From Promethearchaeota archaeon (lineage in GTDB: Archaea; Asgardarchaeota; Lokiarchaeia; Sigyniarchaeales; SOKP01), in assembly GCA_019058445.1 (NCBI GenBank), contig JAHPZA010000003.1, forward strand, positions 282,810 to 346,809: a DNA stretch of 64,000 bases. The letters run 5' to 3'. Below the pieces are notes generated by a model that worked only from the letters and a program-made list of their open reading frames with translations, did not search any database and was not told the origin of the DNA. Numbering within the stretch: position 1 is the first letter of the stretch; each line of letters opens with the position of its first letter. Shown piece by piece: positions 46,474-58,007 of the stretch. The translations under genes were made by a program, and so were the position numbers.

Positions 46474-46827
46474 ATGGATGTATCAAAAAATTATTACAAA
46501 ATTCTTGAAGTTGAAAAAGATGCCAGTGAAGAAGAGATTAAGTTAGCCTATAGGAAGCTGGCAAAGAAATATCATCCTGATTTAAACAAGAATGATCCAA
46601 ATGCCAAAGATAAATTTATTGAATTGAAAGAAGCATATGATATTCTAATAGATCCAGAAAAACGAAAGATATATGATCAAATCGGATATAATCCTCAAAA
46701 TATTGACTTTAGCGACCTTTTCAGCAAATATGATAACAGGAGACTTAGAGAGTTGCTTAGAAGGATATTTGGAAGTGATTTTAAGAGGGATTCCTACAAA
46801 CCTCCCCCAGAAACGATGTATATCTAA
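46474..46827 (+). CDS. Small J-domain (DnaJ-type) protein
   Basis: [24 protein letters not shown]; no zinc-finger or substrate-binding domain. Confidence 0.9.
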
Positions 46828-46863
46828 TCCTTTTTTTTATTAATAAAAAAAAGATGGTAAAAT

Positions 46864-46921
46864 ATATCCAGAACCCTTGCTGGGTTGTCATCGTGCGTCT
46901 CATTTTTTTTCCTTTTTTTAA
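46864..46921 (-). promoter_or_regulatory. 3' half of a SECIS-like element (copy 3) split by IS insertion
   Basis: Minus strand reads ...A-rich loop-AG-ACGCACGA-TGAC-AACCC-AGCAA-GGGTT-CTGGATAT, the same layout as the 3' halves of copies 1 and 2. Confidence 0.7.
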
Positions 46922-48325
46922 GTAGAAAACCATATCTTTTAGGAAATGGATGATCTTGTATAAAAATTATTAATCCCCTTCAGTTCTTACTTTTTTATAG
47001 AGCTTCAGTCAAATATTTATAATAGGATATCAAAAAAGGAGGATAACTCTTGAAAATTAACAAAACAATGAAGCTTCGGCTCTATCCGACCAAAATCCAA
47101 CGAGAACTGTTGAATAAGACATTTGGCTGTTGCCGTCTTCTATGGAATCAGATGTTAGCGGAGCGCAACGAGGTATTTCAAGAATTTAAAGAGAACTCCG
47201 AAACCTTGAGGAATTATAAGTATAAAAAAGAAAAGGATTATAAACAAGAATTTGAGTTTATGAAAGAGGTCGATAGCAAGGCTTTACAATCTACAACCCT
47301 ATACCTAATAGAGGCATTCAATAATTTTTTTAATGGGTTAAAGGTGTCCCGAAAAGTAGGATATCCGAGGTTTAAATCAAAAAAAAGTAAACAATCCTAT
47401 ACTACTTATAACATCAATAGCAATATTAAAATTGATTTTGACCTAAAACATATTAAGCTCCCAAAAATTAAAAAATGGATAAAGTATAAGGATGATAGGA
47501 GTTTTACCGAGCCAATTCGTCATGTAACCGTTTCGAAAACCAAGAGCGGACACTATTACTTGGCCATTTTGATTGAAAAAGAGCTTGATATCTCACCTCT
47601 AACGGAAATCCACGAAGATCGTATAGGAGCATTTGATATGTCAGCCACAAGGTTTCTGATTAGTGAAACTGAAGACTTTTCCAATCCTAGGTTTTATAGA
47701 TCCTCAGAAGCGAGGTTAAAGCAATTGCATCGCCAATTATCTCGCAAAAAAAAGAATTCTCAAAATCGACTGAAAACCAAGCTGAGACTTGCTCGAATGT
47801 ATCAAAAGATTTGGTATCAAAAATATGATTGGACACATAAAACGACCCTTAAACTAGCTAATAAATATGATGTAGTAGTCTTAGAAGACCTTAACATCCA
47901 AGGAATACAAAAATTTAACAGCGGTCTATCTAAATCCGTGACATTAGATTTTTCATGGCATCAGTTTAAAACATTGCTAAAATATAAACTTGAATGGCGA
48001 GGAAAGCACTAACTAGAGGTGAATCGTTTTTTTCCTTCAAGCAAATTATGCTCTGTATGTGGGCATAAAAATATTGATTTAACATTAGCAGAACGCGTAT
48101 GGGTATGTACTGAATGCGGTACACAACATCATAGAGATAAAAATGCGTCAAGCAATCTAAAAAGAGAGGGTATTCGTCTCTTACAAGAAAGAGGAATTAA
48201 AGTCATTATTTGACCTACCGTTGGGACGACGGGAAGTTACGCTTGTGGAGATCTTGTAAGACACCCTTTAAGGTGCTTTGGTCAGGGAAACAAGAATCCA
48301 GATCCTATATGGACTGGTAGTTCAA
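46922..48325 (+). mobile_element. Non-autonomous IS200/IS605-family (IS1341-type, tnpB-only) element
   Basis: Preceded by TTTAA (46917-46921); left-end hairpin ACCATATCTTTTAGGAAATGGA; right-end hairpin then GGTAGTTCAA ending at 48325; no tnpA. Removing it rejoins two halves of one RNA structure. Confidence 0.85.
47050..48213 (+). pseudogene. tnpB: TnpB RNA-guided nuclease with in-frame TAA at 48010-48012
   Basis: KLRLYPT, FGCCRLLWN, GYPRFKSKK, RuvC motifs AFDMS/VLEDL/HRDKNA, Zn ribbon CSVC..CTEC. ORFs 47050-48012 and 48019-48213 are in the same frame, separated by one TAA. Confidence 0.9.
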
Positions 48326-48345
48326 GCAAGATTCATTCTAAACTG
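48214..48345 (+). ncRNA. Putative TnpB omega-RNA (right-end scaffold plus about 20-nt flanking guide)
   Basis: Right-end sequence CCTACCGTTGGGACGACGGGAAGTTACGCTTGTGGAGA...GAAACAAGAATCC...GTAGTTCAA, typical of tnpB elements. Boundaries approximate. Confidence 0.6.
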
Positions 48346-48350
48346 GATAT
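48326..48350 (-). promoter_or_regulatory. 5' half of SECIS-like element copy 3
   Basis: Minus strand ATATCCAG-TTTAGA-ATGA-A-TCTTGC. ATATCCAG pairs with CTGGATAT on the far side of the IS. Confidence 0.7.
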
Positions 48351-48354
48351 CTAA

Positions 48355-48393
48355 TTATAAATATTTATTAATTGCATCCGTTAGTATATCTAT
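48355..48393 (-). pseudogene. C-terminal remnant of a second peroxiredoxin-like gene
   Basis: Encodes IDILTDAINKYL*, versus IEILTDAIDKYL* at the end of 48592-49107; lies immediately upstream of SECIS copy 3. Confidence 0.8.
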
Positions 48394-48477
48394 TTAGGAT
48401 TTATTAATTTAAAATATGGAAACAATTTATTGGTTAAAATGATTTAAATGTTTAATAACACTCATTAATTTTATAAA

Positions 48478-48542
48478 CCTTAATCCTTGGCTAGGATGTC
48501 AGCAAATGTCTAAAGTTTTTACATTTGCCTCATTCGTTAAGG
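48478..48542 (-). promoter_or_regulatory. Eukaryote-like SECIS element (copy 1), 3' UTR of the UxxU gene
   Basis: CCTTAA-CGA-ATGA-G-GCAAATGT-AAAAACTTTAG-ACATTTGC-TGAC-ATCCT-AGCCA-AGGAT-TAAGG: AUGA/GA core, perfect 8-bp helix II, apical A-run, closing helix I. Confidence 0.9.
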
Positions 48543-48591
48543 AAAGAATTTAAAATTTCAGTTAAGGAATGGTGTATCGATTATCATTTAC

Positions 48592-49107
48592 TTATAAATA
48601 TTTATCAATCGCATCAGTTAATATTTCTATTGTGGGTCTATCTTCTTTACTACCTATATAATACCAAACTATTTCTCCATTTTTTTTAATAAGTACTTTA
48701 GCAGGAAGAGCATTATTAACTTGTAAATCATCATGACCATCGGTTTTTTCTGTTACAAACATATTATATGATTTAGCTATTTTTCCGCCTTTATCAGGGA
48801 TAGTCGTGAAATTAAAATTATTAACTTCTTTCATCTTTTTCAATCGTCTAGTACTATCTTTTGCTATTGCTATTAACTTTACGTTGCGTTTTTCGAACTC
48901 TGACATATTTTTGGTTAAGTATTTAAAGTGTTCTATTCAATATACTCACCATCCCCCTCTAAAGAAGTCGATTAAAACCCCTCGATGGTTCTCAAGCATA
49001 ATCGCTAAATTTGCTTCATTCCCATCAATGTCGGTTGTATCGATAGTAGGAGCTTTGGAACCAATAGGTAATCCTTTATTAGGTATAGAAATATGTAAAT
49101 CTGTCAT
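48592..49107 (-). CDS. AhpC/TSA peroxiredoxin-like selenoprotein with UxxU motif (171 aa)
   Basis: From ATG 49107: MTDLHISIPNKGLPIGSKAPTIDTTDIDGNEANLAIMLENHRGVLIDFFRGGW-TGA-VY-TGA-IEHFKYLTKN, continuing in frame into ORF 48592-48906. The TGAs (48946-48948, 48937-48939) occupy both Cys positions of the family motif F(Y/F)RGxWCPxC; SECIS downstream. Confidence 0.92.
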
Positions 49108-49202
49108 TATTAACAATAAAAACAATAGAAATAAAAAGGATATTGAAATATTTTAAAAGAAAAAATAAAGAAAAATGATTAATTGTGTGTAGCGTTTTTT
49201 AA

Positions 49203-49270
49203 TCCTTAATCCTTGGCTAGGCCGTCAGCATACGTCTATATTTTATACGTCTGCCTCATTCTATTAGGAA
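49203..49270 (-). promoter_or_regulatory. Eukaryote-like SECIS element (copy 2)
   Basis: TTCCTAAT-AGA-ATGA-G-GCAGACGT-ATAAAATATAG-ACGTATGC-TGAC-GGCCT-AGCCA-AGG-ATTAAGGA; 7 of 8 helix II pairs, with compensatory changes relative to copy 1. Confidence 0.88.
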
Positions 49271-49306
49271 TTAAATTAAATTTTTTAATTACGTCAGATA
49301 TATGAT

Positions 49307-49420
49307 TTATCATTTAAATCTTAGTTCCATGAAAAATACAAATCTTCGACAGTTAGGGCAATAATAGTATCCACTCGTATTCTCTTGTATTGTATGTCCA
49401 CACTTTTGGCATATTATCAT
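49307..49420 (-). CDS. Zinc-ribbon microprotein, candidate C-terminal selenocysteine (36 aa + U)
   Basis: MIICQKCGHTIQENTSGYYYCPNCRRFVFFMELRFK-TGA-TAA. Aligns without gaps to the 46119-46271 paralog, with TGA opposite Cys39; SECIS core 50 nt after the TGA. Confidence 0.7.
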
Positions 49421-49663
49421 ATGGTATCATTTAGTTGATAATTTGACATCTTTTAAAGTTTAATTTTATATTTTAAATATTAATTAGCAAATCATATTTA
49501 TATATATAAATCCGAGAAAAAAGTCGCTTTTTTCAGATGAAAACACGTACATAAAATTGCGTAATTAAATTTATATTATCCAACCCTATTATTATATCAA
49601 TTCCTAAAAGTATAATGCATTGAAATATTATCTAAAATATTAACAGAAAGGGGTTGTTTTTTT

Positions 49664-50416
49664 ATAAATATCGTTAAAATAATCGTTGACGGATTTGGTG
49701 GAGTAGGAAAGACAACCTTACTCAAAAAACTCGAGTACGGAATCTTCGACCCAGATACAAGGTTAACGATCGGATGCGATTTTTTTGCTAAAAAAACAAA
49801 CCTTTTTGGACATAGTGTAACTGCACAATTTTGGGATTTAGTAGGAGCAGCCCGATTTAATTTTTTGCGACCAATTTGTTATAAGGGAGCAAATTGTATT
49901 GTTTTAGTGGCAGACCTCACGAGACCAATCACTTTTGAGCGAATTGATTATTTTATTGAAGTCGCAAAAAAAGCTAATATTAATCCTAATCAAATTATTT
50001 TAGTAGGAGCCAAAACAGACTTATTTTATGAAAGAAGCGTTGACTCCCTTTATTTATCAACAATTTTAGAAAAGCTTGGCATATCCGAATCCGTAGAAAC
50101 ATCGGCAAGAAATAACCATAATTTAGAGGAATTATTTGAATTAGCTACTGCCTTGGCAATGTATCACAAGGGAATGATTACTGAAAATGAATATATCTTT
50201 ATGAAAGAAGAAGTTAAACAGAGAATTAAAGAACCAGTGCCCGAACCATATGAAAAATTAATAAGAAAATGCTGGAAGTGTGGAAGATCGTTATTCTTTC
50301 ACGAATTTTGCGATTCTAATAATAAAATTTATAATGAAGAGAGATTATTAGAATTATGGGAAAATCCTGTTCTTGAATTTTATTGCTGTGCTTGTTATAA
50401 AGAGCTAACTTCTTAA
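49664..50416 (+). CDS. Rab/Ras-like small GTPase with C-terminal Cys-rich (zinc-binding) domain; probable non-canonical start
   Basis: The frame upstream of the listed ORF carries VKIIVDGFGGVGKTT, TIGCDF, FWDLVGA; then GAKTD, ETSAR; C-terminal CWKC...CCAC. No ATG/GTG/TTG lies between the stop at 49613 and 49865; ATA at 49664 follows GAAAGGGGT. Confidence 0.8.
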   Translation: MNIVKIIVDGFGGVGKTTLLKKLEYGIFDPDTRLTIGCDFFAKKTNLFGHSVTAQFWDLVGAARFNFLRPICYKGANCIVLVADLTRPITFERIDYFIEVAKKANINPNQIILVGAKTDLFYERSVDSLYLSTILEKLGISESVETSARNNHNLEELFELATALAMYHKGMITENEYIFMKEEVKQRIKEPVPEPYEKLIRKCWKCGRSLFFHEFCDSNNKIYNEERLLELWENPVLEFYCCACYKELTS

Positions 50417-56915: not shown

Positions 56916-58007
56916 TTATTTGTTTAAGATCTTTTTGGTGTATTCTCCTATTTTTTGAAATGCTTCATCTGCTTCTGGTAACTGATGTAAACCAAAGCCT
57001 TGAAATACATGGACCATTTCATCCCACGATTGTAATTCAATATCCACACCTGCCTTTTTAGCTCGTTCATAAAATCGTTTAATCTCACTATAAAGAATTT
57101 CACAAGAACTTGCTTGGATTAATATGGGTGGTAATCCCTTTAAATCTCCAAATAAAGGGGAAATCAAAGGATCTTGAGAATTAGCTCCTGCAATATAAAT
57201 ATAAGGCCACCAAAAAATTCCAAGATCTGCTAAAATTGGGTCTGTTTCTCCATTTTTAATAGATAAATCATCTAGACGTGAAATATCTTCTACATATGAA
57301 AGATCAGTGGCTGGTGAGATTGGTATTGCTCCAGCAGGTAAAGGTATTCCATCATCTCGTAATTTTATAAGACTTGAGAGTGTTAAATTTCCCCCTGCTG
57401 AATCTCCTGCTATTATTATATTTTCGGGTTTTATATCATTGGATAACAACCATTTATAAGCCGCAACACAATCTTCCACTGCTGCTGGGAATGGATGCTC
57501 TGGCGCAAGCTTATAATCAACACTTAGAACCCGCATTTTAGTTACCTTGGCCAATTCAAGGGTTAGTAATCGACAGGTATTTGGAGATCCCATAATCCAT
57601 CCACCTCCATGGAAATACAATAAGACTCTTTCTTTATGCGCCCCAGGTACGGTTTGCCACTCAGCGGGGATTTCATTGATTACGATTTTCTCAATTTTTA
57701 CATCATCGGGTATTGGAGTCTTTTTTTGTTCTAAACTTGCACCATAATCGAATCCATGCCTAAGCAAGTTTACCATAAAGCGTCTTTCTTTTTCCGTTAA
57801 TAAATTAGTTAATTCTTCAACATTTTTCTCTTTTTTAAAAAACAATTCATTTGCGTCCGTGATTTTCTTATAAAGTGTCTGGAAATTAAATTCTTTATTC
57901 TCTTCTCTGCTTAAAAATTCCAAAATTCCAGTCATTTGCTCTTTAAAACCATCATCATAAATTTTAAGAACATCTGGTCGAATTTTTTTTCTATTTAAAA
58001 TAGGCAT
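56916..58007 (-). CDS. Alpha/beta hydrolase, HSL family esterase/lipase
   Basis: HGGGW, LAPEHPFPA, GDSAGG, HVFQ. Confidence 0.92.
   Translation of the reverse strand: MPILNRKKIRPDVLKIYDDGFKEQMTGILEFLSREENKEFNFQTLYKKITDANELFFKKEKNVEELTNLLTEKERRFMVNLLRHGFDYGASLEQKKTPIPDDVKIEKIVINEIPAEWQTVPGAHKERVLLYFHGGGWIMGSPNTCRLLTLELAKVTKMRVLSVDYKLAPEHPFPAAVEDCVAAYKWLLSNDIKPENIIIAGDSAGGNLTLSSLIKLRDDGIPLPAGAIPISPATDLSYVEDISRLDDLSIKNGETDPILADLGIFWWPYIYIAGANSQDPLISPLFGDLKGLPPILIQASSCEILYSEIKRFYERAKKAGVDIELQSWDEMVHVFQGFGLHQLPEADEAFQKIGEYTKKILNK

Follow-up and report, generated by a model that had tools for sequence, protein, structure and literature searches.

Can a transposon lodged in a SECIS element switch selenocysteine (Sec) decoding of the adjacent gene off and on, and what serves that gene if the element is broken? 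The question is raised by a locus in a 64,000-nt stretch of contig JAHPZA010000003.1 (the window; 31% G+C) from a Promethearchaeota archaeon whose genome, G000, spans 4.6 Mb in 10 contigs and is 92.6% complete. An original prediction, made from the letters alone, had placed a TnpB-bearing insertion sequence (IS) inside a SECIS and proposed that its insertion or excision could act as such a switch. The element proves to be a member of the IS200/IS605 family, and both the SECIS in which it sits and the selenoprotein gene before that SECIS are of known types. The overall explanation that we hold to be very probable is a dead insertion in one SECIS, (c), with Sec insertion most likely proceeding through another, (b).

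LokiSECIS is the type I, eukaryote-like SECIS of Lokiarchaeia, whose host genes include PrxL genes (Mariotti et al. 2016, PMC4989117; survey of 2024, PMC11227280). It is defined there (PMC4989117) by AUGA, a 9-bp stem, an 11-nt loop with adenines first and AG last, and GA; the 3′ flank of the stem is GA, rarely AA.

If our explanation is right, an Asgard SECIS has here been knocked out naturally, and a natural replacement stands beside it; a span of 2.6 kb holds the donor, its copy with the compensatory stem changes, and the disabled original. What deserves the attention of specialists is SECIS (b), donated by a neighbouring gene; as a transposon, the element is an ordinary fossil of the IS605 type.

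Searches and models

IS relatives. Relatives of the IS were sought in the DNA of 121 genomes from the family, and copies at 65-81% identity were recovered. Left ends were compared in an alignment of the copies L028, L030-L033, L050 and L052.

Empty site. The one close empty site is that of a genome of the same genus, G003. Exact-pattern scans for the empty site across the metagenome collection gave no match, and no strain-level empty allele was found in them.

SECIS model. A covariance model, R1, was built from eight SECIS cores, all (c)-type sequences being excluded: (a), (b) and four other elements of G000, and the (a) elements of G003 and G008. Its input consisted of fixed-geometry 41-nt cores; MAFFT misaligned the 91-nt SECIS segments, and that alignment was discarded.

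The selenoprotein genes and Sec machinery

Two genes precede the broken element, both read from the minus strand; the second of the features below belongs to the upstream one.

49107-48592, minus strand: PrxL selenoprotein gene, 171 codons, with in-frame TGA at 48948-48946 and 48939-48937, motif GGWUVYU
49222-49262, minus strand: core of SECIS (a), with AUGA at 49259, of the type from which (b) derives; its gene is the 37-codon zinc-ribbon gene at 49420-49307

Pfam AhpC-TSA matches the C-terminal part of PrxL, and both Cys of its CxxC are replaced by Sec codons. The frame and both UGA codons are intact in G000, and the protein is 87% identical to that of G003. Orthologues read UxxU in G003 and UxxC in G005, G015 and G002. 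The G000 protein is of the PrxL.1 type of Lokiarchaeal selenoprotein, in which the two-Sec form (UxxU) is served by one SECIS according to the account of PrxL in PMC4989117.

The zinc-ribbon gene (minus strand) has a CxxC...CxxC pattern and ends in ...RFK-TGA-TAA. Its reading frame, the TGA-TAA pair and a SECIS about 45 nt downstream are shared by G003 and G008, where substitutions are mostly conservative, and the last residue of this microprotein is probably Sec.

SepSecS is found in G000 at 380 bits. The Rfam tRNA-Sec model had no match in the genome; Aragorn with introns allowed predicted a tRNA-Sec at G000:C1:27020-27126, with anticodon TCA and an intron of 17 nt; the intron fits the one described for Loki tRNA-Sec in PMC4989117. 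Very few tRNAs of G000 are detected at all without intron-aware settings. G000 is a Sec-using Asgard archaeon (Promethearchaeota, Loki-type).

Divergent from the microprotein-PrxL unit, positions 49655-50416 (plus strand) hold a gene for a Ras-family small GTPase, whose P-loop GGVGKT is encoded near 49700 and whose real start precedes the TTG open reading frame listed for it.

Ends, target and empty site of the insertion

The insertion and its ends were located as follows.

46912-48325, plus strand: IS200/IS605-family element, a tnpB-only derivative of 1414 bp, its ends taken from related copies and the G003 empty site
46907-46911, plus strand: position of the target motif at the left end, TTTTC here and TTTAC in the G003 empty site
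46912-46965, plus strand: left end of the IS, 10 AT-rich nt and then GTAGAAAACCAT...ATGGATGA, an imperfect hairpin judged by eye
48213-48325, plus strand: right end of the IS, a conserved structured RNA like an omega-RNA scaffold, with a predicted guide start at 48326

On the right, 18 related copies (two at one shared site; at least 17 copies are in other genomes) close with GGTA(A/G)TTCAA and pass into unrelated flank, and the window copy, ending in ...GGTAGTTCAA, stops at the same base, 48325. On the left, seven other copies at six sites start 10 nt before a conserved G(C/T)AGAAA block; the flank before that start is TTTAC in 6/7 of them and TTTAT in the seventh. These seven left ends put the start of the window IS at 46912, directly after TTTTC.

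G003 is about 87% identical to G000 here, with the PrxL gene and the DnaJ-side flank adjacent. Its plus strand reads CATTTTTTTAC/GCAAGATTCATTC at the empty site, that is TTTAC/GCAAG with no target duplication. Insertion 3′ of a fixed tetra- or pentanucleotide without target duplication, a trait of the IS200/IS605 family, is what this site displays. The ends, the target and the empty site of the IS are established by these comparisons, although the target in G000 may have differed from TTTAC before the insertion. G000 contains one copy of the element, plus a relative at 63% identity, and the IS was not found at this site among 40 relatives.

The related copies and the G003 empty site bear out the original prediction of a tnpB-bearing IS200/IS605-type element that entered a SECIS without target duplication, and its right end at 48325 stands. 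Its left end, 46922, was off by 10 nt, and the TTTAA that it took for the target gives way to TTTAC, found beside six other copies and in G003. The checks that it had proposed thus turned out unevenly: an IS-less relative does carry the empty-site allele, but the predicted junction CCTTTTTTTAA/GCAAGATTCATTC does not exist, and the other IS copies agreed with its right end and not with its left end or target motif.

The SECIS split by the insertion

Outside the IS, on the minus strand, lie the two parts of one element.

48326-48350, minus strand: 5′ half of SECIS (c), with the helix I arm ATATCCAG, AUGA at 48336-48333 and stem positions 1-7
46864-46911, minus strand: 3′ half of SECIS (c), with stem positions 8-9, the 11-nt loop AAAAAAAUGAG, the 3′ arm ACGCACGAU, GAC, a mini-hairpin and the second helix I arm

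With 46912-48325 removed, the joined minus strand gives AUGA, 9-nt arms, the 11-nt loop and then GA, and the loop, adenines first and A-G last, is as the lokiSECIS rule has it. The AUGA directly 5′ and the GA directly 3′ of the upper stem are found alike in the joined G000 element and in the orthologues of G003, G005 and G002. In G003 the minus strand at the empty site reads AUGA-AUCUUGCGU-AAAAAAAUGAG-ACGCACGAU-GAC, with AUGA 18 nt past the PrxL stop, and an uninterrupted (c) also follows PrxL in G005 and G002. Helix I of 8 bp (ATATCCAG / CTGGATAT) is present in the G000 letters, as are AUGA, GAC and the mini-hairpin AACCC-AGCAA-GGGTT; every local SECIS element has a mini-hairpin of this sort in the interval from GAC to the 3′ arm of helix I. 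Pairing of the upper stem is 7/9 in the joined G000 element and 8/9 in G003. A single base separates the two cores, at stem position 9 (U in G003, A in G000), where the joined G000 element has an A.A closing pair; the base at this position is the A of TTTAC read on the opposite strand.

The model R1, trained without any (c)-type sequence, matched, well above chance expectation, the (c) orthologues of G003 (38.2 bits, E 6e-6), G005 (40.9 bits) and G002 (30.9 and 38.4 bits), with E-values from 3e-4 to 2e-6 across them; in the window it gave no match at either split half. When the three-helix structure (helix I, upper stem and mini-hairpin) was laid on the five (c)-type sequences, 82.7% of cells were paired, against 28-53% with the partners slid, and 4 pairs were changed on both sides, modest covariation evidence because the sequences number only five. 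Rfam at gathering scores reported nothing in the whole window and chance-level matches only in 46700-49500; its eukaryotic and archaeal SECIS families did not report the local SECIS elements.

From its structure and place, element (c), now split, is identified as the SECIS of PrxL and as lokiSECIS in type. The IS lies on the strand opposite to the selenoprotein gene and interrupts the upper stem between positions 7 and 8, two pairs below the loop. With 1414 bp between these positions, (c) should be unable to fold as a single RNA hairpin and is presumably silent in G000.

The hairpin rebuilt in the original prediction was right in its 8-bp helix I, AUGA, GAC and mini-hairpin; its 21-nt loop is actually 11 nt, since a start at 46922 left 10 IS bases inside the hairpin, which also produced two apparent stem defects. 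Nor did the insertion fall in the apical loop proper, its point being in the upper stem, and a SECIS whose joined core is one base from the intact G003 element was hardly decaying already.

A second SECIS copied from the neighbouring gene

Relative to G003, the interval from the PrxL stop to (c) is longer by 240-260 nt in G000; this extra segment is made up of the following.

48463-48591, minus strand: SECIS (b) module, a copy of the stop region plus SECIS (a), from local alignment with 49317-49192
48496-48536, minus strand: core of SECIS (b), with AUGA at 48533, a perfect 9-bp stem (9/9, pattern scan), the loop AAAAACUUUAG and GA
48395-48462, minus strand: AT-rich spacer, its similarity to the PrxL 5′ leader not significant
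48355-48394, minus strand: PrxL 3′ leftover (IDILTDAINKYL and stop codon) that repeats the end of the intact gene

The first part of the extra segment is thus a 122-128-nt copy that runs from the stop of the neighbouring gene (TAAATGATAA) through SECIS (a), the second an AT-rich spacer of 68-74 nt and the third a 43-nt copy of the PrxL 3′ end. This last lies directly upstream of (c), is 86% identical over 43 nt to 48631-48589, was matched by tblastn and aligns with the end of the G003 gene. Compared with the PrxL leader, the spacer scored no better than chance (128/500 shuffles scored as well).

A pattern scan of the minus strand found two complete SECIS, (a) and (b), the latter between intact PrxL and broken (c), so that PrxL need not depend on (c). 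The stem of (b) shows four differences from that of (a), with pairing maintained or improved by them (C-G to U-A; G.A to A-U), and these compensatory changes suggest that (b) has been retained as a hairpin. Under R1 (b) scores 50.7 bits, but as a training row it is not scored independently.

The alignment points firmly to SECIS (a) of the neighbour as the origin of (b), and it is most likely (b), 58 nt past the stop, that serves Sec insertion in PrxL. For the fuller claim, that (b) is a working signal which PrxL gained through a copy of about 125 nt from the 3′ end of the neighbouring microprotein gene, we judge the case to be evenly balanced. If it is true, the locus has caught a SECIS module passing between unrelated selenoprotein genes, and (b) would explain why destruction of the native SECIS by a transposon was tolerated, or how it was made good. 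The Asgard selenoproteome survey (PMC11227280) proposes that new selenoprotein genes acquire their SECIS from existing ones.

State of the transposon

The coding part of the IS is as follows.

47050-48216, plus strand: pseudogene of tnpB (388 codons), interrupted in frame at codon 321 by TAA (48010-48012), where relatives have TAT (Tyr)

Its product contains the Pfam domains HTH_OrfB_IS605 (PF12323), OrfB_IS605 (PF01385) and Cas12f1-like_TNB (PF07282). Codon 321, TAA in G000, is TAT or TAC in 10/11 relatives compared, and the eleventh is frameshifted there. By the Pfam domain positions, the TAA precedes the zinc-ribbon domain; given the usual arrangement of TnpB, it also precedes the last RuvC motif, and a TnpB lacking both should be inactive.

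The closest full relative (L028, in genome G125) encodes a Y1 TnpA (PF01797, E 2e-37) and an intact TnpB of 397 aa with 75% amino acid identity. In the G000 copy only 138 nt separate the left end from tnpB, which leaves no tnpA, and no Y1 TnpA was found anywhere in the G000 genome at its completeness of 92.6%. With tnpA missing from copy and genome and present in L028, the copy is a non-autonomous IS200/IS605 derivative. TnpB-type genes in G000 number eight, and the named relatives of the transposon all come from Promethearchaeota (Asgard) metagenome-assembled genomes.

In the RNAalifold consensus of the right ends of 15 copies, 33 pairs were predicted and compensatory changes were seen in 4; Rfam had no family match to the right-end RNA. 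The right-end stems are thus conserved with covariation, whereas the left-end hairpin was seen by eye only. The right end folds as expected of an omega-RNA scaffold, and its predicted guide would be the flank GCAAGATTCATTC..., that is, the SECIS DNA itself. Without tnpA, with tnpB broken and with its target motif mutated, the G000 element is a fossil.

Order of events and alternative explanations

The ancestral layout, still present in G003, would have been the zinc-ribbon microprotein gene, SECIS (a), PrxL (UxxU), SECIS (c) and a convergent DnaJ-domain gene. The layout fits a local duplication of the unit formed by (a) and PrxL, after which most of the second gene copy was lost while (b) and the PrxL leftover remained; with a spacer lacking significant similarity to the PrxL leader, this tandem-duplication model is unproven. 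In the G000 lineage, the IS would have inserted on the plus strand 3′ of TTTAC, which is the antisense of the G-U top of the SECIS stem and the first loop adenines, splitting the upper stem of (c) and later decaying to a fossil.

Module (b) is 71% identical to (a) of G000 and 68% to (a) of G003, whereas between the two genomes (a) itself is 84% identical. Since (b) is more diverged than (a) is between species, and the halves of (c) are almost unchanged, we lean towards (b) being older than the insertion, an order that rests on about 40-130 nt in short stretches under differing selection. Taken at face value, it would mean that the IS struck a SECIS already backed up, or one serving the now-deleted second gene copy.

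A related arrangement occurs in the same-genus genome G002 (L017; G002:C323, 704-1523 in minus-strand view). A decayed leftover of the PrxL 3′ end, interrupted by a stop, comes first there, and the full PrxL (UxxC) after it has a (c)-type SECIS on either side, the second of which leads up to the same DnaJ-side flank. Here a leftover and an extra SECIS occur without an IS, so local PrxL/SECIS duplication recurs in the genus.

The reverse order, in which the IS first destroyed the only SECIS of PrxL and a copy from the neighbour was then fixed and restored Sec insertion, we regard as unlikely. The IS and (b) are both restricted to the G000 lineage among the genomes searched, the perfect 9-bp stem of (b) has been kept by compensatory changes and PrxL retains both UGA codons, all of which speak for a rescue. 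The identities just given nevertheless suggest that (b) is old, and a one-base change in the core of (c) with a single disabling change in tnpB suggests that the insertion is recent; the G002 locus, moreover, is a duplication that needed no IS.

The reversible switch of the original prediction, by which insertion and precise excision of the IS would toggle Sec decoding of PrxL, is very improbable. Precise excision of IS200/IS605 elements is established, the joined flanks are one base from a SECIS of working type, and relatives bearing TnpA exist in other genomes of the family; yet no Y1 TnpA was found in G000, tnpB is broken, the motif at the left end is TTTTC rather than TTTAC, and the element is a single copy that is not at this site in 40 relatives. 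Excision would in any case change little with (b) between the gene and the broken element. That the IS was misplaced by misassembly of a metagenome bin is scarcely credible. The assembly is a draft of 10 contigs and the relatives are metagenome-assembled genomes, but the element is single copy in the assembly, leaving no repeat to mislead the assembler, the site lies deep in a 672-kb contig, and both junctions fall at the conserved ends of the family, beside its target motif. We therefore keep to a dead insertion in (c), with Sec insertion most likely through (b).

SECIS as an insertion target

TTTAC arises wherever a lokiSECIS has a G-U stem top followed by an adenine run, and (b) likewise reads TTTTTAC at its stem-loop junction (48516-48522, plus strand), the same relative place as in (c). 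A literature search on IS-disrupted SECIS returned no such report among its top-ranked papers. The pattern of right end plus 7 nt plus TCAT had 28 matches in 154 genomes of the order, mostly in unrelated genes and with a few true right ends, and none but that of G000 joins into a SECIS; the flanks of the other IS copies examined bore no SECIS likeness by eye. TTTAC occurs 16,745 times in the G000 genome. This abundance, with no second case of an IS in a SECIS, argues against SECIS being a preferred target, and the most fitting reading of the insertion is an accident of the kind usual for an IS, unusual in its location.

Comparison with known systems

IS608 targets TTAC and closes its right end with TCAA, which TTTAC and TTCAA of the G000 element resemble. 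With IS200/IS605 elements (IS608-like, and the tnpB-only IS1341 type) the element shares a TnpB with HTH, OrfB_IS605 and zinc-ribbon domains and, apparently, structured ends without terminal inverted repeats; it differs in that the G000 copy is without tnpA, its tnpB is a pseudogene and the host range is Asgard. In ISDra2 and related elements, TnpB guided by omega-RNA reportedly cleaves the empty donor site and so aids transposon retention. The G000 right end likewise encodes a conserved structured RNA, whose predicted target would be the uninterrupted SECIS DNA with TTTAC as the adjacent motif, but the G000 system should be inactive owing to the nonsense codon in tnpB.

The elements of G000 and G003 share with lokiSECIS the AUGA, the 9-bp stem, the 11-nt loop, the GA and a place just past the selenoprotein stop. 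Unlike it, (c) of G000 is split by a 1414-bp transposon, and a second SECIS of another lineage stands behind the same gene; the small local hairpin from GAC to helix I is not described in the structural passages of PMC4989117 and PMC11227280. Selenoprotein genes with two SECIS are known from vertebrate SelP and Metridium MsrB, as cited within PMC4989117, and there too a gene that has at least two Sec codons is followed by both elements. The G000 pair, in contrast, is of differing origin with one member broken, and the G003 orthologue, with the same two Sec codons, has one SECIS. The locus thus offers four ready-made variants for probing what a lokiSECIS needs: module (b), the (c) of G003, and the (c) of G000 either joined, with its A.A closing pair, or split.

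Other SECIS-like matches

At 57814-57853 (minus strand) the window holds a weak SECIS-like match (18.9 bits, E 0.13) with AUGA, a 9-nt stem of 8 pairs, a 10-nt loop and GA, which is probably due to chance. The R1 search of the whole genome returned the six training elements and one more, absent from the training set and outside the window, at G000:C3:156309-156350 (minus strand; 38.1 bits, E 4e-4), which may mark another selenoprotein gene.
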